From the NCBI RefSeq assembly GCF_044324875.1, contig NZ_CP172185.1: a DNA stretch of 64,000 nt. One strand, written 5' to 3'. The stretch comes from Escherichia coli (GTDB taxonomy: Bacteria; Pseudomonadota; Gammaproteobacteria; Enterobacterales; Enterobacteriaceae). A program made the translations under genes and the position numbers. Shown one piece after another: positions 1 to 14,239 of this stretch (position 1 is the first letter of the stretch; each line of letters starts with the position of its first letter). The notes beneath the pieces are model-generated. The model did no database searches. It saw only the letters and a list, made by a program, of their open reading frames with translations, and was not told the DNA's origin.

Positions 1-830
1 CGGGAAGCCCTTTTACCGGCGAACGTACTTTACCGCCGGAAGTGATGGCCAATATCGAAGCGAAATATCATCTTAATGATCCGATCATGACACAGTATTT
101 CAGCTACCTGAAACAACTGGCGCATGGCGATTTCGGTCCATCGTTTAAATATAAAGATTATTCGGTCAACGACCTGGTTGCATCCAGTTTTCCCGTTTCT
201 GCCAAACTGGGAGCCGCAGCATTTTTCCTTGCGGTAATACTGGGTGTTAGTGCTGGCGTTATTGCAGCATTAAAACAAAACACCAAATGGGACTATACCG
301 TGATGGGGCTGGCAATGACCGGGGTTGTTATCCCCAGTTTTGTGGTTGCGCCATTATTAGTCATGATATTTGCGATCATTTTGCATTGGCTGCCGGGCGG
401 TGGCTGGAATGGTGGTGCGCTTAAATTCATGATACTGCCAATGGTGGCGTTGTCACTCGCCTATATCGCCAGTATTGCGCGTATTACCCGTGGCTCTATG
501 ATTGAAGTATTACACTCCAACTTTATTCGTACTGCCCGGGCGAAAGGGTTACCTATGCGGCGGATCATTTTACGCCACGCATTAAAACCTGCTCTGTTAC
601 CCGTGCTCTCCTATATGGGCCCTGCATTTGTCGGCATTATTACCGGTTCTATGGTCATCGAAACCATTTATGGTTTGCCGGGGATTGGGCAATTGTTCGT
701 TAATGGTGCATTGAACCGTGACTATTCCTTAGTGTTAAGCCTGACCATTCTGGTTGGCGCGTTAACCATTTTGTTTAATGCCATTGTCGATGTGCTATAT
801 GCGGTTATCGACCCGAAAATCCGTTACTGA
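1..830 (+). CDS. oppB: oligopeptide ABC transporter permease OppB (5' end cut by window edge)
   Basis: Frame is open from nt 3 to stop at 828-830; translation matches remembered OppB C-terminal two thirds; first gene of opp permease/ATPase run. Confidence 0.9.
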   Translation, partial: GSPFTGERTLPPEVMANIEAKYHLNDPIMTQYFSYLKQLAHGDFGPSFKYKDYSVNDLVASSFPVSAKLGAAAFFLAVILGVSAGVIAALKQNTKWDYTVMGLAMTGVVIPSFVVAPLLVMIFAIILHWLPGGGWNGGALKFMILPMVALSLAYIASIARITRGSMIEVLHSNFIRTARAKGLPMRRIILRHALKPALLPVLSYMGPAFVGIITGSMVIETIYGLPGIGQLFVNGALNRDYSLVLSLTILVGALTILFNAIVDVLYAVIDPKIRY

Positions 831-844
831 TACTGGAGCTCGCG

Positions 845-1753
845 ATGATGTTAAGTAAGAAAAACAGCGAGACGCTGGAAAATTTCAGTGAAAAGCTGGA
901 GGTCGAAGGGCGCAGCTTGTGGCAGGACGCACGTCGACGTTTTATGCATAACCGTGCGGCGGTTGCCAGTCTGATAGTGCTGGTGCTGATCGCGTTATTT
1001 GTCATCCTGGCACCGATGCTTTCGCAGTTTGCCTATGACGATACTGACTGGGCGATGATGTCCAGCGCCCCGGATATGGAGTCCGGTCACTACTTTGGAA
1101 CTGACTCATCCGGTCGCGATCTGCTTGTGCGCGTTGCGATTGGCGGGCGTATCTCACTCATGGTCGGTGTTGCTGCGGCACTGGTGGCAGTGGTCGTCGG
1201 GACACTTTACGGTTCGCTTTCCGGTTATCTGGGCGGTAAAGTGGATTCGGTAATGATGCGTCTGCTGGAAATCCTCAACTCCTTCCCATTCATGTTCTTC
1301 GTCATTTTGCTGGTGACCTTTTTCGGTCAAAACATCCTGCTGATTTTCGTGGCGATAGGCATGGTTTCCTGGCTGGATATGGCTCGTATTGTGCGTGGGC
1401 AAACCCTGAGTCTGAAGCGCAAAGAGTTTATTGAGGCGGCACAAGTTGGCGGTGTATCGACGTCGGGCATTGTTATTCGCCACATTGTGCCGAACGTACT
1501 CGGTGTGGTGGTGGTCTACGCATCACTTCTGGTGCCCAGCATGATCCTCTTTGAATCTTTCCTTAGCTTCCTGGGGTTGGGTACGCAAGAGCCGTTAAGC
1601 AGCTGGGGTGCATTGCTGAGTGATGGCGCGAACTCGATGGAAGTCTCTCCATGGTTATTGTTGTTCCCAGCGGGATTCCTCGTGGTGACGCTATTTTGTT
1701 TCAACTTTATCGGCGATGGCTTGCGTGATGCCCTCGACCCGAAAGATCGTTAA
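845..1753 (+). CDS. oppC: oligopeptide ABC transporter permease OppC
   Basis: 302-aa ORF, polytopic membrane protein, position between oppB and oppD. Confidence 0.93.
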   Translation: MMLSKKNSETLENFSEKLEVEGRSLWQDARRRFMHNRAAVASLIVLVLIALFVILAPMLSQFAYDDTDWAMMSSAPDMESGHYFGTDSSGRDLLVRVAIGGRISLMVGVAAALVAVVVGTLYGSLSGYLGGKVDSVMMRLLEILNSFPFMFFVILLVTFFGQNILLIFVAIGMVSWLDMARIVRGQTLSLKRKEFIEAAQVGGVSTSGIVIRHIVPNVLGVVVVYASLLVPSMILFESFLSFLGLGTQEPLSSWGALLSDGANSMEVSPWLLLFPAGFLVVTLFCFNFIGDGLRDALDPKDR

Positions 1754-1764
1754 GGAGTGCAGCC

Positions 1765-2778
1765 ATGAGCGTAATTGAAACTGCAACTGTGCCGCTCGCA
1801 CAACAACAGGCTGACGCACTGCTGAACGTGAAAGATTTGCGTGTCACCTTTAGTACCCCGGACGGCGACGTCACGGCGGTCAATGATTTGAATTTTTCCC
1901 TACGTGCCGGAGAAACGCTGGGCATTGTAGGTGAGTCTGGTTCGGGTAAATCGCAAACTGCATTTGCGTTGATGGGCCTGTTGGCTGCCAACGGACGTAT
2001 TGGCGGATCGGCAACCTTCAATGGGCGTGAAATCCTCAATTTGCCAGAGCATGAACTCAATAAACTGCGCGCTGAACAAATCTCAATGATTTTTCAGGAC
2101 CCAATGACTTCGTTGAATCCCTATATGCGTGTCGGTGAGCAGTTGATGGAAGTGCTGATGCTGCATAAGAACATGAGCAAAGCTGAGGCGTTTGAAGAGT
2201 CGGTGCGGATGCTCGATGCGGTAAAAATGCCGGAAGCACGTAAACGCATGAAAATGTACCCGCATGAATTTTCTGGTGGCATGCGTCAGCGAGTCATGAT
2301 TGCGATGGCATTGCTATGTCGACCTAAGCTGCTGATTGCGGATGAACCCACTACTGCGCTGGACGTCACCGTACAGGCGCAGATCATGACGCTATTAAAT
2401 GAACTGAAGCGGGAATTTAATACCGCCATCATTATGATCACCCACGATCTTGGCGTGGTGGCGGGGATCTGCGACAAAGTGCTGGTAATGTACGCCGGGC
2501 GCACGATGGAATATGGCAATGCGCGCGATGTCTTTTATCAACCCGTTCATCCTTATTCTATCGGTTTGCTCAACGCGGTGCCGCGTCTCGATGCGGAAGG
2601 TGAAACAATGTTGACCATCCCGGGTAATCCGCCAAACTTGCTGCGATTACCGAAAGGTTGCCCGTTCCAGCCACGTTGTCCACATGCGATGGAAATTTGT
2701 AGTAGCGCACCGCCGCTGGAAGAGTTTACGCCTGGCCGTCTGCGTGCTTGCTTTAAACCGGTGGAGGAACTGTTATGA
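1765..2778 (+). CDS. oppD: oligopeptide ABC transporter ATP-binding protein OppD
   Basis: 337 aa; Walker [12 protein letters not shown] signature FSGGMRQR, Walker B LLIADEPT; 4-nt overlap with oppF. Confidence 0.95.
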   Translation: MSVIETATVPLAQQQADALLNVKDLRVTFSTPDGDVTAVNDLNFSLRAGETLGIVGESGSGKSQTAFALMGLLAANGRIGGSATFNGREILNLPEHELNKLRAEQISMIFQDPMTSLNPYMRVGEQLMEVLMLHKNMSKAEAFEESVRMLDAVKMPEARKRMKMYPHEFSGGMRQRVMIAMALLCRPKLLIADEPTTALDVTVQAQIMTLLNELKREFNTAIIMITHDLGVVAGICDKVLVMYAGRTMEYGNARDVFYQPVHPYSIGLLNAVPRLDAEGETMLTIPGNPPNLLRLPKGCPFQPRCPHAMEICSSAPPLEEFTPGRLRACFKPVEELL

Positions 2779-3779
2779 ATGCTGTAACTGAAGGAAGAAA
2801 AGTCCTCCTTGAAATCGCCGATCTGAAAGTGCACTTTGAAATCAAAGATGGCAAACAGTGGTTCTGGCAACCGCCGAAAACGCTCAAAGCCGTCGATGGT
2901 GTCACTCTTCGCCTGTATGAAGGGGAAACATTAGGTGTGGTAGGGGAGTCGGGATGCGGTAAGTCCACCTTTGCTCGCGCCATCATCGGTTTGGTCAAGG
3001 CGACCGACGGTCATGTTGCCTGGTTAGGTAAAGAGTTGCTGGGCATGAAGCCCGATGAATGGCGTGCCGTTCGCAGTGATATTCAGATGATTTTCCAGGA
3101 TCCGTTGGCATCGCTAAACCCGCGTATGACCATCGGCGAGATTATCGCTGAACCGCTGCGTACCTATCATCCGAAAATGTCACGCCAGGAAGTTCGCGAG
3201 CGCGTGAAGGCGATGATGCTGAAAGTCGGGTTATTGCCTAACCTGATTAACCGCTATCCGCATGAGTTCTCTGGTGGGCAGTGCCAGCGTATCGGGATTG
3301 CTCGTGCTCTTATTCTTGAACCGAAGCTGATTATCTGTGATGAGCCGGTGTCGGCGCTGGACGTGTCAATTCAGGCGCAGGTGGTCAACCTGCTCCAGCA
3401 GCTGCAACGCGAGATGGGATTGTCATTAATTTTTATCGCTCACGACCTGGCCGTGGTAAAACACATTTCCGATCGTGTGCTGGTGATGTATCTCGGCCAT
3501 GCGGTAGAACTGGGGACCTATGATGAGGTCTACCACAATCCACTACATCCTTACACCAGGGCATTGATGTCGGCAGTCCCCATACCTGATCCGGATCTGG
3601 AGAAGAATAAAACCATCCAGTTACTGGAAGGGGAATTACCGTCGCCGATCAACCCGCCTTCCGGTTGTGTTTTCCGTACCCGTTGCCCGATTGCCGGTCC
3701 GGAGTGCGCCAAAACACGTCCTGTTCTGGAGGGGAGTTTCAGACACGCCGTTTCTTGCCTGAAAGTCGATCCGCTTTAA
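2775..3779 (+). CDS. oppF: oligopeptide ABC transporter ATP-binding protein OppF
   Basis: 334 aa; Walker A GESGCGKS, signature FSGGQCQR. Confidence 0.95.
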   Translation: MNAVTEGRKVLLEIADLKVHFEIKDGKQWFWQPPKTLKAVDGVTLRLYEGETLGVVGESGCGKSTFARAIIGLVKATDGHVAWLGKELLGMKPDEWRAVRSDIQMIFQDPLASLNPRMTIGEIIAEPLRTYHPKMSRQEVRERVKAMMLKVGLLPNLINRYPHEFSGGQCQRIGIARALILEPKLIICDEPVSALDVSIQAQVVNLLQQLQREMGLSLIFIAHDLAVVKHISDRVLVMYLGHAVELGTYDEVYHNPLHPYTRALMSAVPIPDPDLEKNKTIQLLEGELPSPINPPSGCVFRTRCPIAGPECAKTRPVLEGSFRHAVSCLKVDPL

Positions 3780-11037: not shown

Positions 11038-11676
11038 ATGAAAAAGTTAACAGTGGCGGCTTTGGCAGTAACAACTCTTCTCTCTGGCAGTGCCTATGCG
11101 CATGAAGCAGGCGAATTTTTTATGCGTGCAGGGTCTGCAACCGTACGTCCAACAGAAGGTGCTGGTGGTACGTTAGGAAGTCTGGGTGGATTCAGCGTGA
11201 CCAATAACACGCAACTGGGCCTGACGTTTACTTATATGGCGACCGATAACATTGGTGTGGAATTGCTGGCAGCGACGCCGTTCCGCCATAAAATCGGCAC
11301 CCGGGCGACCGGCGATATTGCAACCGTTCATCATCTGCCGCCAACACTGATGGCGCAGTGGTATTTTGGTGATGCCAGCAGCAAATTCCGTCCTTACGTT
11401 GGTGCAGGTATTAACTACACCACCTTCTTTGATAATGGATTTAACGATCATGGCAAAGAGGCGGGGCTTTCCGATCTCAGTCTGAAAGACTCCTGGGGAG
11501 CTGCCGGGCAGGTGGGGGTTGATTATCTGATTAACCGTGACTGGTTGGTTAACATGTCAGTCTGGTACATGGATATCGATACCACTGCCAATTATAAACT
11601 GGGCGGTGCACAGCAACACGATAGCGTACGCCTCGATCCGTGGGTGTTTATGTTCTCAGCAGGATATCGTTTTTAA
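11038..11676 (+). CDS. ompW: outer membrane protein W
   Basis: 212 aa; signal peptide MKKLTVAALAVTTLLSGSAYA; beta-barrel, C-terminal aromatic residue. Confidence 0.95.
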   Translation: MKKLTVAALAVTTLLSGSAYAHEAGEFFMRAGSATVRPTEGAGGTLGSLGGFSVTNNTQLGLTFTYMATDNIGVELLAATPFRHKIGTRATGDIATVHHLPPTLMAQWYFGDASSKFRPYVGAGINYTTFFDNGFNDHGKEAGLSDLSLKDSWGAAGQVGVDYLINRDWLVNMSVWYMDIDTTANYKLGGAQQHDSVRLDPWVFMFSAGYRF

Positions 11677-11734: not shown

Positions 11735-12241
11735 TTATTTCTTCGCTTCCACGCCATCAGTTTCAGAGCGAATTAAGAATTTCTCAGTTGTTTGCGGAAT
11801 ATGCTGAATTAGCCAGTCGGCCATGTGCTTTTCCTCATTTAAAATCGCTTCGATAATCGGAATTGAGGCTGTATCACCGGCATTTTTTGCTGCTGCTAAG
11901 AGTGAGGTATAACAGGCGATTTCAAATTGCTCGAAGACATATCCGCTAATAGAGCCTTTGACTATTTCATCAGAAGGGAATATACCACCGATTGACTGTC
12001 CAAGCGCAGCCATTTTACTCATGGAATCTTTAATGACTGAACGTGAAATGTCATTACGATCAAGAATAGTTTCCAGTTGAACAATCTGGTTTTTGGTTTC
12101 ACTAAGATGTTGTTCAATACGAGCGCGTAGTTCAGGATAATTATCTATACGACTGGCCATGGATTCAAGCATAGATTCGGCTTGCTTTTCCATTGCGTGG
12201 GCGTCACGTAACCAGTCATGATAATGTTCAATACGATTCAT
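11735..12241 (-). CDS. yciE: ferritin-like/DUF892 stress protein YciE
   Basis: 168-aa ORF matches remembered YciE. Confidence 0.9.
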   Translation of the reverse strand: MNRIEHYHDWLRDAHAMEKQAESMLESMASRIDNYPELRARIEQHLSETKNQIVQLETILDRNDISRSVIKDSMSKMAALGQSIGGIFPSDEIVKGSISGYVFEQFEIACYTSLLAAAKNAGDTASIPIIEAILNEEKHMADWLIQHIPQTTEKFLIRSETDGVEAKK

Positions 12242-12286
12242 GAAAATGTCCTCTTTATAAAATGACTAAAAGTTAAAGTTCATATT

Positions 12287-12787
12287 TCAGGCTTTATTTT
12301 CGGCTTTCTTATTTACGTTATTAAGGGCCAGATCAGTCAGTTTGATGTCTGTGGCCTTTTCTTCTTCCAAAGTTTCTTTCAGAAGCTTCGCTGCTTTACG
12401 GTAACCTAATTGTTCAGCCAGCGTCGCTAAGGTCCCGTAACTGGCGATCTCATAGTGCTCGACTTTCTGTGCAGCGGCAATTAGTGCGGCATCACGTACT
12501 TCGTTTTTCTCGGTGCTTTCGATGACCTCATTAGCTTCTTCAATGAGACCTTCCATTGCCACACATTTCATGCGCTTAATTTTCAGGTTCGATTCAGATT
12601 CCACAACTTGATCAATTCGTTCAATCTGTCCATGAGTTTCCTCGAGGTGCGCATGAAAAGCCTGACTTAATTTTTCATTTGATGTTGCTCTTGCGAGTTT
12701 TGCCAGTGCCCGGGTTAATTGTTTTTCTGCGCTGTAGGTATCTGAAAGCAGGTGAATAAATACATCTTCAATGGTCTTCATATTCAT
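12287..12787 (-). CDS. yciF: ferritin-like/DUF892 stress protein YciF
   Basis: ORF trimmed to MNMKTIEDVF (166 aa); paralogue of YciE. Confidence 0.88.
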   Translation of the reverse strand: MNMKTIEDVFIHLLSDTYSAEKQLTRALAKLARATSNEKLSQAFHAHLEETHGQIERIDQVVESESNLKIKRMKCVAMEGLIEEANEVIESTEKNEVRDAALIAAAQKVEHYEIASYGTLATLAEQLGYRKAAKLLKETLEEEKATDIKLTDLALNNVNKKAENKA

Positions 12788-12872
12788 ATTTTTCTCCAGT
12801 GAAATCACTGCGAGCCATACGGCCCGCAGATGCAATTATCTTTATCAGCTGATATTAATAATTAACGGTGAA

Positions 12873-13052
12873 TCAGGATTTTCCTGATTTATTACCACCG
12901 CTTTGTTGACCGCCTTTTTTACCCGCTTCGGATGCGCGTTGCGGATCATTTTTAAAATTACCGCCGCTATGCTGACCGCCTTTACGGCCTGCGTCGGATG
13001 CCTTCTCACGGTCTTCGGCGAAATTTCCTGAACCACCACGATGTTCGGCCAT
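12873..13052 (-). CDS. yciG: KGG-repeat general stress protein YciG
   Basis: 59 aa from ATG at 13052 with GGGAGA SD; two internal KGGQxSGGN repeats. Confidence 0.85.
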   Translation of the reverse strand: MAEHRGGSGNFAEDREKASDAGRKGGQHSGGNFKNDPQRASEAGKKGGQQSGGNKSGKS

Positions 13053-13400
13053 GTTATTTCTCCCGTTGCGTTGCATTGTTTCATTAATATGAGTGTTGTG
13101 TGTCGACACTCATTAAAATTAGTCGCTAATGAGAATTAGTCAAATTAAGCGTAACGAGAAGAAAATGGGAAAATATATTATGAGGAAAGTTCTTGATATA
13201 TTAACAATTGCCTGAGGAATAAGTGACTTAGAGAAAATTATTGATTTTACTGGTGTTATGTTGCGGGATTAATTTATTTGATTATATTACTGTTGGGCGG
13301 AAAAATGACGTAAGTTGACGTTCGACAGGGGTAAGCGAAACGGTAAAAAGATAAATATTAAATGAATTTAGGATTTTTCTGGCTTCGTTAAAGAAAGTTA

Positions 13401-13428
13401 AAATGCCGCCAGCGGAACTGGCGGCTGT
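13401..13428 (-). terminator. trp operon terminator (trp t)
   Basis: On minus strand CAGCCGCCAG-ttcc-GCTGGCGGC followed by ATTTT immediately after trpA stop. Confidence 0.85.
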
Positions 13429-13432
13429 GGGA

Positions 13433-14239
13433 TTAACTGCGCGTCGCCGCTTTCATCGGTTGTACAAAAACTTTCAGTGCCACCAGCATTTTCTCTGGCT
13501 CATTAATATGTTGCTCGATGATTTTAACAATGGCTGAACCTGAAATCGCGCCTGCAGCTCCTGCATCAATCGCTGCTTTGACCTGATCCGGGGCGGAAAT
13601 ACCAAATCCCTGCAATGGAGGTGCAGCGTTGTACTCTTTCAGCTTCGCAACCAGATGATCGAGGGGTAACGCGGCGCGGTTTTCTGCGCCGGTCACGCCC
13701 GCACGTGACAATAAATAGGTGTATCCACGACCGTAGGAGGCTATCTGGCGCAGCAAATCATCGTCGGCATTCGGCGGGCAAATAAAGATAGGTGCGACAT
13801 TATGACGCAACGCGGCCTGGCGGAAGGGAGCGGACTCTTCCACTGGCACATCGGCAACCAGCACCGAATCGACGCCGACTTTCTCGCACTGGGCATAAAA
13901 CTCATCAATGCCTTTGTTAAACACCAGGTTGGCATACATCAAAAGGCCGATGGGAATGGTCGGGTGCTTCTGGCGAATCAGTGCCAGCATCTCAAAGCAC
14001 TGTGCCGGGGTCACACCTGCCGCAAAGGCACGCAGTGTGGCGTTTTGAATCGTCGGGCCATCCGCCAGTGGGTCGGAGAAGGGGATACCTAACTCCAGCG
14101 CGTCAGCACCGGCTTCAATTAGCGTGTCGATAATTTTCAGCGACTGCTCAATGCCCGGATCACCGAGCGTGACGAAAGGAACGAATGCGCCTTCTTTGCG
14201 CTCCTTCAACTGGGCAAACAGAGATTCGTAGCGTTCCAT
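13433..14239 (-). CDS. trpA: tryptophan synthase alpha subunit
   Basis: 268 aa [12 protein letters not shown]...; 1-nt overlap with trpB. Confidence 0.97.

Follow-up and report, generated by a model that had tools for sequence, protein, structure and literature searches.

The region in front of yciG in Escherichia coli carries a perfect inverted repeat, which raises the question of whether the repeat controls the gene, as an operator or as a structure of the 5' untranslated region, or whether it arises by chance from the promoter sequence on which it lies. Both functions had been proposed in a first-pass annotation of the DNA studied here, a window of 64,000 nucleotides of E. coli (NCBI RefSeq assembly GCF_044324875.1, contig NZ_CP172185.1); the window is the whole stretch that was analysed, and all positions below refer to it. 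We consider it fairly likely that the locus holds a known gene with its sigma-S promoter and that the palindrome is a fortuitous by-product, not a regulatory element. The gene, its KGG repeats, the sigma-S promoter, the H-NS silencing and the transcription start of yciG are all already published. That the palindrome lacks a function is what we infer as most likely from the repeat anatomy, promoter conservation, folding energies and polymorphisms determined here, together with start sites from published data.

The yciG locus

The open reading frame list, a BLAST comparison with complete E. coli genomes and the RefSeq annotation identified the content of the window as the trpA-yciGFE-ompW region of E. 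coli. ompW lies on the plus strand (11038-11676), and the minus strand carries yciE (11735-12241), yciF (12287-12787), yciG (12873-13052) and trpA (13433-14239); adding 1302983 to a window coordinate gives the position in NC_000913.3. Based on the open reading frame list, RefSeq and Pfam, yciG is the first gene of yciGFE and encodes a KGG-repeat hydrophilin of 59 amino acids (plus stop). Two coding substitutions are the sole differences between the window and K-12 over the stretch that runs from the yciG promoter through the gene, and a 56-nt segment containing the palindrome is identical. The yciGFE operon is described in the literature as RpoS (sigma-S)-dependent and silenced by H-NS/StpA. 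The trpA-yciG spacer (380 nt) has a GC content of 31-32%, compared with ~55% in the trp genes, and this low value fits the published silencing of the locus. Its upstream boundary is the intrinsic terminator hairpin of the trp operon (13405-13425, minus strand), which the terminator scan identified by nine pairs, seven of them G-C, followed by a T-run. The yciG promoter was reportedly studied in Robbe-Saule 2001 and Beraud 2010, and Beraud et al. 2010 are said to have footprinted YncC/McbR on it. McbR/YncC is also reported in the literature as an activator or anti-silencer at yciG.

KGG repeats of YciG and the overlapping reading frame

The YciG protein of the window is identical to RefSeq WP_000807651.1, which occurs in many strains, and RefSeq annotates yciG with 180 bp in K-12 as well as in other strains. 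Its start, MAEHRGGSGNF, is kept in most of the 19 Enterobacteriaceae orthologues (among the matches listed), with close variants in the rest. When compared with the Pfam KGG profile PF10685 (22 residues; gathering score 20.4 bits), YciG matched in two stretches with 64.8 bits (E 7.9e-18). YciG thus belongs itself, and with no difference, to the KGG-repeat general stress proteins of PF10685, which include YciG, YmdF, Salmonella STM14_1829 and the Bacillus GsiB-like hydrophilins and appear in RefSeq as the 'con-10 family'; like the family it is small, rich in Gly, Lys, Ser and Asn and, according to the literature, RpoS-dependent. Its K-12 paralogue YmdF shares 87% identity with it.

The repeat unit of YciG is 22 amino acids (66 nt) long and is present in two full KGG copies and a partial N-terminal one, all on the minus strand. 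Unit 1 (ASDAGRKGGQHSGGNFKNDPQR, amino acids 18-39, 12936-13001) was delimited from its DNA repeat copy and the Pfam stretch, and unit 2 (ASEAGKKGGQQSGGNKSGKS, amino acids 40-59, 12876-12935) from the second DNA repeat copy; the partial copy (EHRGGSGNFAEDREK, 13002-13046) was recognized from a three-copy family of DNA repeats with spacings of 66 and 72 nt, in which the third occurrence of a 14-nt core lies another 72 nt upstream. The direct repeat itself pairs 12957-13001 with 12891-12935 over 45 nt at 80% identity, with starts 66 nt apart, and is the coding image of the 22-aa protein repeat. This bears out the earlier description of a KGG protein repeat mirrored as a DNA direct repeat. The two copies described at that time are also present, with the corrections that their unit measures 22 and not ~19 residues and that an additional partial copy precedes them.

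An open reading frame of 79 codons overlaps yciG in an alternative frame (12845-13084, minus strand, from the open reading frame list); it had been judged spurious and ascribed to the repeat. We uphold the judgement and reject the frame as a real overlapping gene: its 79-aa product gave no match in a Pfam scan, its ATG at 13084 is not conserved (the orthologues have upstream stops or no ATG), and no Shine-Dalgarno sequence was found before that ATG. The frame is stop-free within the yciG coding sequence in the window and in 17 of the 19 orthologues (among the matches listed), and the third frame contains 5-12 stops. The reason lies in the protein: a stop in the alternative frame can arise only where a yciG codon has T as its second base, and Leu, Ile, Val and internal Met are all missing from YciG. 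Because amino-acid composition accounts for the missing stops, the open frame is not evidence of coding, and composition, not the repeat itself, is its cause.

Promoter and transcription start

Upstream sequences were collected from 19 Enterobacteriaceae genomes found via YciF, among the matches listed, in which Escherichia is represented by E. coli alone. In the window, a -35 element TTGACT (13138-13143) is followed by the -10 element C-TAATTT with -13C and then TAA (13116-13122), both on the minus strand. The arrangement TTGAC(T/G), exactly 16 nt, C-TA(N3)T, usually then TAA, was found in the window and in 17 of the 19 orthologues (among the matches listed), with TTGATC as the -35 element in one species. 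The extended -10 with -13C is a signature of sigma-S promoters. Like other sigma-S promoters of E. coli and Salmonella, that of yciG has the -13C -10 and the downstream TAA, starts mapped 7-9 nt downstream, and an upstream region that is AT-rich and silenced by H-NS; the palindrome is merely superimposed at -6 to +19.

Two published start sites (13107-13109, minus strand) fall inside the left arm of the inverted repeat. For E. coli K-12, Table S1 of Kim et al. 2012 gives a yciG start at 1314114 (NC_000913.2) with 2 reads and a 5'UTR of 55 nt; the accompanying string, which ends in ...TAATGAGTG, places it at G13107, the 9th nt after the -10 element. The count of 2 reads is low because yciG is poorly expressed in K-12. 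For S. Typhimurium SL1344, Ramachandran et al. 2014 report a primary start at 1782354 with a 5'UTR of 57 nt (dRNA-seq, late stationary phase), which is the 7th nt after TAATTT, directly before GTGTCGACAC, and is equivalent to G13109 in the window. The reads at this Salmonella start halve (330 vs 168) in a comparison that, judging by the topic of the paper, may involve a ppGpp-deficient strain. The start-site sets of Peano 2015, ROSE and Wong 2017 contained no yciG entry.

The promoter scan also returned a sigma-70-like promoter at 13204-13177, which we rejected as the main promoter: its -10 differs in K-12 (CAAAAT), one such site was found against 1.6 expected by chance, and the conserved promoter further downstream accounts for both mapped starts. 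Control by Fur was likewise set aside, having been merely speculated for katN in one review.

From these starts, the yciG mRNA begins GU(GU)CGACACACAACACUCAU and contains at most 2-4 nt of the left arm of the inverted repeat. Further downstream, the leader contains a pentanucleotide repeat, (GCAAC)x2 (13065-13074, minus strand), with a copy number that varies among strains (2 in the window, 4 in one of L105-L114 and 6 in strain PD23). Directly after it follows the Shine-Dalgarno sequence GGGAG (13060-13064, minus strand, read from the sequence), 7 nt before the ATG at 13052, within a block, GGAGAAATAAYATG, that is kept in Salmonella, Kosakonia and Phytobacter. On this reading the E. coli yciG leader is an unstructured, CA-rich stretch leading into a good Shine-Dalgarno site.

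The inverted repeat overlies the transcription start

The inverted repeat, ATGAGTGT-N9-ACACTCAT, occupies 13089-13113 on the minus strand (left arm 13113-13106, spacer 13105-13097, right arm 13096-13089), and a perfect 10-bp palindrome, GTGTCGACAC (13100-13109), is nested in it as an initial transcribed block common to E. coli and Salmonella. The first-pass annotation was right about the inverted repeat and its 9-nt spacer; its coordinates, 13088-13111, differ by 1-2 nt and are corrected here. Its placement of the repeat just upstream of the start codon does not hold, as the repeat sits at the downstream edge of the promoter and across the transcription start, at a distance of 37-61 nt from the yciG ATG (13052); counted from the transcription start, it covers about -6 to +19 (or -4 to +21). 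The position of the start with respect to the palindrome had been singled out at that time, along with conservation of the repeat, as informative; the published starts lie inside the left arm, neither upstream nor downstream of the palindrome, and the outer arms are unconserved in Salmonella and other genera.

The repeat is within what chance would give. Among dinucleotide shuffles of the 380-nt intergenic region, 13.75% contained a perfect 8-nt inverted repeat with a spacer of 3-20 nt, and 43% contained a 10-bp palindrome.

When the upstream regions of E. coli and Salmonella were compared, identity was 59% over ~250 nt, and conservation was concentrated in the -35, the -10, GTGTCGACAC, the block with the Shine-Dalgarno sequence and, further upstream, a (T/G)AATATAT element. 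The inner GTGTCGACAC is present in each of the 12 Salmonella sequences compared, none of which has the outer arms; these arms are also absent from 15 sequences of other genera, and the other genera keep CGACA alone and not the 10-bp palindrome. An island of conservation in an otherwise diverged alignment fits some constraint at +1 to +10. It lends an operator a low probability, and a conserved core promoter whose first transcribed bases are constrained would explain it equally well. The palindrome most likely results from a conserved core promoter and initial transcribed block (GTGTCGACAC) joined by a chance complement downstream.

Within E. coli, the intact palindrome (as a 33-mer) is the majority allele, being found in 4310 of the 4722 complete genomes with the 56-mer locus. 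G13107A, which disrupts both palindromes, occurs throughout the O157:H7 lineage (301 genomes), and G13111A and C13091T each change one arm in single E. coli strains. No compensating change was seen for any of the three. Taken together, these observations suggest that the palindrome is probably non-functional.

Is the palindrome an operator?

Among the alternatives, it is unlikely that the inner palindrome GTGTCGACAC serves as an operator over +1 to +10. In favour of this proposal, repressor sites typically occupy such a position, E. coli and 12 Salmonella sequences share an identical 10-mer between diverging flanks, and GT-N2-AC cores are found in operators of GntR/FadR-type regulators, a type to which McbR/YncC, acting on the yciG promoter, belongs. 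The yciG dyad also resembles the palindromic operators of GntR/FadR-type and other dimeric helix-turn-helix repressors in being perfect and in overlapping +1, but it differs from them: the outer arms are unconserved, O157:H7 has a disrupted inner palindrome and the other genera have none. The 301 genomes of the O157:H7 lineage carry GTATCGACAC instead, the other genera have only CGACA, and the chance of a 10-bp palindrome in shuffled intergenic regions (43%) also argues against an operator. Moreover, the McbR-repressed mcbA promoter contains no similar sequence, and an activator or anti-silencer role of McbR at yciG is ill-suited to a site over +1.

No palindrome-like dyad was found in the regions upstream of ymdF or of mcbA, and the comparison with ymdF, which had been recommended earlier, thus revealed no palindrome in common; in the 64-kb window, one other match to the palindrome was found at one mismatch, which is the chance level. 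The mcbA promoter and the region upstream of the yciG -35 (13204-13195) do share an ATATAT-type element, which agrees with the McbR ChIP-seq motif reported in the literature and with the reported activator or anti-silencer role of McbR at yciG. The palindrome is probably not a McbR/YncC site, given that mcbA has no dyad and shares the ATATAT-type element upstream of the yciG -35 instead. Overall, the earlier operator proposal finds no support beyond the conservation of GTGTCGACAC with Salmonella, the outer arms being unconserved.

A predicted leader hairpin in other Enterobacteriaceae

The leaders of other genera, predicted by taking the sequence from 7 nt after the -10 element, behave differently from that of E. 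coli when folded. In 15 other orthologues (among the matches listed) the predicted leader contains a strong hairpin, with folding energies between -7 and -12 kcal/mol and a location near +9 to +40; another 12 distinct leaders, taken from NCBI genomes, behave likewise. Two types were distinguished. Type A, CUGAACGACAAC-[GGAUACG...CGUAUCY]-CCUGACAUAAAC, occurs in Klebsiella, Enterobacter, Citrobacter, Lelliottia and Leclercia, with a stem variant (GAUGCG...UGCAUC) in Pseudocitrobacter; type B, GACGACAU...AUGUCGUU or GGCGACACU...AGUGUCGUU, occurs in Kosakonia and Phytobacter.

In the type A alignment, 88.8% of cells pair, and sliding the partner by 1-3 columns lowers this share to 31-52%. Changes on both sides are seen in five of the 10 pairs, a count reached by only 7 of 500 shuffles. 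Several substitutions lead to G-U pairs and the loop varies from ~7 to 14 nt, and these features favour an RNA stem over a DNA operator with fixed spacing. Covariation of the type A stem is suggestive, not proven, as there is little variation in the six core pairs and the number of sequences is low. A scan of the yciG leaders of five other species against Rfam returned no match. The E. coli yciG leader contains no such hairpin; that of Salmonella has a weak hairpin of 4-5 bp only, itself polymorphic, and both leaders are 8-15 nt shorter.

It is possible, if on balance doubtful, that an unannotated and lineage-variable RNA stem-loop ~10-40 nt from the 5' end acts as an element of post-transcriptional control or stabilisation in this family, and that the E. 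coli palindrome and GTGTCGACAC represent its rearranged remnant or a replacement operator. The narrower proposal that the palindrome is what evolution has left of this leader hairpin, rearranged so that both arm-like sequences survive and no longer work as RNA, seems to us rather improbable. The leaders of Kosakonia and Phytobacter fold as GGCGACACU...AGUGUCGUU or GACGACAU...AUGUCGUU; the 3' arm of Kosakonia, AAGTGTCG, has a similar counterpart in E. coli, GAGTGTCG, and its 5' arm equals E. coli CGACAC. This likeness with the order of the arms swapped weakly suggests a hairpin remnant. The sequence after the hairpin, TAAYTGAAACAA...GGAGAAATA, also aligns between Kosakonia/Phytobacter and E. 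coli, and a leader shortened by 8-15 nt in E. coli and Salmonella would be consistent with rearrangement. However, the matches are 6-8 nt long in AT/CA-rich sequence and come from a sample without intermediate forms, and the alignment is ambiguous, with MAFFT placing the arms differently in two alignments (A3 and A4). The remnant proposal concerns origin only and is compatible with our preferred explanation of the present state, a fortuitous palindrome over a sigma-S promoter.

Does the E. coli palindrome act as RNA?

An isolated RNA of the 33-nt hairpin folds with -8.9 kcal/mol (z -3.6), and the full 8-bp stem requires a 5' end at or upstream of 13113. Transcripts from 13107-13109 begin within the left arm (13113-13106), and the yciG mRNA therefore cannot fold into the 8-bp hairpin. 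This was reflected in the folding of leaders on the minus strand from successive 5' ends: -1.0 kcal/mol (z +1.41) from 13107, -3.7 (z +0.91) from 13109, -6.9 (z -0.78) from 13111 and -8.6 (z -1.11) from 13113, and 188 of 200 shuffles folded as well as or better than the leader from 13107. The earlier suggestion of a 5'-UTR structure therefore fails, as the two arms are not both in the transcript, the leaders from the mapped starts have positive z-scores and no compensatory pairing was seen.

A stem of this kind could still matter if yciG transcription started at heterogeneous positions: transcripts from 13111-13113 would bear a 5' stem of 6-8 bp that guards the mRNA from 5'-end-dependent decay in stationary phase, in the manner of ompA. 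We regard this as improbable to a considerable degree. In its favour, the E. coli start is supported by 2 reads only; a start 2-4 nt upstream would give a hairpin of 4-6 bp, with the energies from 13111 and 13113 listed above; the isolated hairpin has its low z-score; and in most other Enterobacteriaceae the first part of the yciG leader contains a strong hairpin. Nonetheless, bases that the stem needs are located upstream of both published starts (13107 and the position equivalent to 13109), a distance of 7 nt past the conserved -10 predicts a start at 13109, the single-arm polymorphisms are uncompensated, and a stem of this kind is missing from Salmonella, which shares the promoter and the start. 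The DNA could encode a stable 8-bp stem at the junction of promoter and leader comparable to the 5' stabilising stem-loops of the ompA type; in contrast to those, yciG transcripts from the mapped starts have lost 4-6 nt of the 5' arm, and covariation is absent.

At the palindrome there is no intrinsic terminator, the stem being followed by ATATTAATG with no T-run, and the sole match of the terminator scan was the trp terminator; an Rfam scan of 12200-13500 returned no match, save a sub-threshold sroD over the trp terminator. It is very improbable that the palindrome serves trp read-through transcripts, either by forming a structure at their 3' end or by promoting pausing or termination in a second, Rho-dependent trp terminator region: the repeat does lie ~290-315 nt downstream of the trp intrinsic terminator on the same strand, read-through transcripts would contain both arms and a Rho-dependent site, trp t', is reportedly situated roughly 250 bp beyond trp t, but no T-run follows the stem, the terminator scan has no match here, and the repeat is unconserved in Salmonella despite the same trpA-yciG arrangement.

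Implications for annotation and for the RpoS regulon

For E. coli the significance of the palindrome is small, since it adds no demonstrable layer of control to a published sigma-S promoter. The inverted repeat at 13089-13113 is better not annotated as an operator or leader structure, and both the older 78-codon frame with a GTG start (13109) and the 79-codon overlapping open reading frame are best left unannotated. The covarying hairpin in the yciG leader of other Enterobacteriaceae, a suggestive case that has been lost or reshaped in E. coli and Salmonella, would be relevant to the post-transcriptional control of genes of the RpoS regulon.

Leader structure across genera

Strong stem-loops are predicted in the yciG leaders (5'UTRs) of Klebsiella, Enterobacter, Citrobacter, Lelliottia, Leclercia, Pseudocitrobacter, Kosakonia, and Phytobacter. 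In the sequences compared from other genomes, these leaders are at 2653-2727 (L005), 2649-2724 (L007), 2650-2725 (L009), and 2643-2718 (L017), and at about 225-303 in L115-L130. The stem-loops carry compensatory and G-U changes as well as loops of variable length, and they were matched by no Rfam family. In the type A form (Klebsiella, Enterobacter, Citrobacter, Lelliottia, and Leclercia), conserved blocks lie on either side of the stem-loop, namely CUGAACGACAAC and CCUGACAUAAAC. The E. coli leader, on the other hand, is without the stem-loop that is present in these genera.

In the minimum-energy fold of Klebsiella (L116 and L118 leaders; L005 2659-2727), the 3' arm of the hairpin, CGUAUCUU, is predicted to be able to pair with the Shine-Dalgarno region AGAGGUAUG instead. 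This modelled pairing hints that the Klebsiella leader may adopt two mutually exclusive structures; the alternative pairing was not seen in Enterobacter or Citrobacter.

Variation in the E. coli leader and upstream region

Directly upstream of the yciG Shine-Dalgarno, the window contains a pentanucleotide repeat, (GCAAC)x2, at 13065-13074. The repeat has grown to four copies in a single E. coli genome (one of L105-L114) and to six in strain PD23 (L083), making the leader longer by 10 and 20 nt, respectively. A G to A substitution at window position 13107 (K-12 NC_000913.3 1316090) was detected in the O157:H7 lineage (301 complete genomes), where it changes GTGTCGACAC to GTATCGACAC and falls precisely on the start site mapped in K-12.

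Between E. coli strains, the intergenic region varies most at 13160-13215, which precedes the start site by 50-105 nt. Within this stretch the sequence TTAATATATC (13204-13195) resembles AAAATATATCG, located in the mcbA promoter, and GAATATAT of Salmonella. We consider it a candidate McbR/YncC or H-NS element. An Rfam match to sroD at 13400-13454 was sub-threshold (E 0.16; 21.9 bits, where the gathering score is 50) and overlaps the trp terminator hairpin; it was taken as chance.

Reading frames at yciG

Inside the yciG CDS, the +1 frame (12876-13052) contains no stops, both in the window and in 17 of the 19 orthologues, only because the encoded protein has no Leu, Ile, Val, or internal Met. 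This is a clean case of a compositional pseudo-ORF. An in-frame GTG at 13109, which opens a 78-aa ORF in the mechanical list, occupies the same position as the transcription start and therefore cannot be the start codon of the mapped mRNA. The 59-aa RefSeq model of yciG is supported.

Insertions and variable presence of the locus

Several E. coli strains were observed to carry IS1 elements between trpA and yciG (window about 13091-13430; L084 749-1446; hits H1 and H2). With the IS1 of strain 600055, native sequence restarts at the equivalent of 13091, within the right arm of the palindrome that overlaps the yciG transcription start, and the yciG promoter is absent. In strain 90-3040, ompW is truncated and yciF is a pseudogene.

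Among 5426 complete E. coli genomes, about 700 had no match to window 12700-13450, and the window itself was matched at 99.2% at best. The presence of the locus is variable, which agrees with published rearrangements and horizontal transfer of yciGFE. Three tRNA genes, not trpA, precede the yciG operon in Klebsiella oxytoca (L005 2045-2280), so the operon occupies differing chromosomal contexts across genera.
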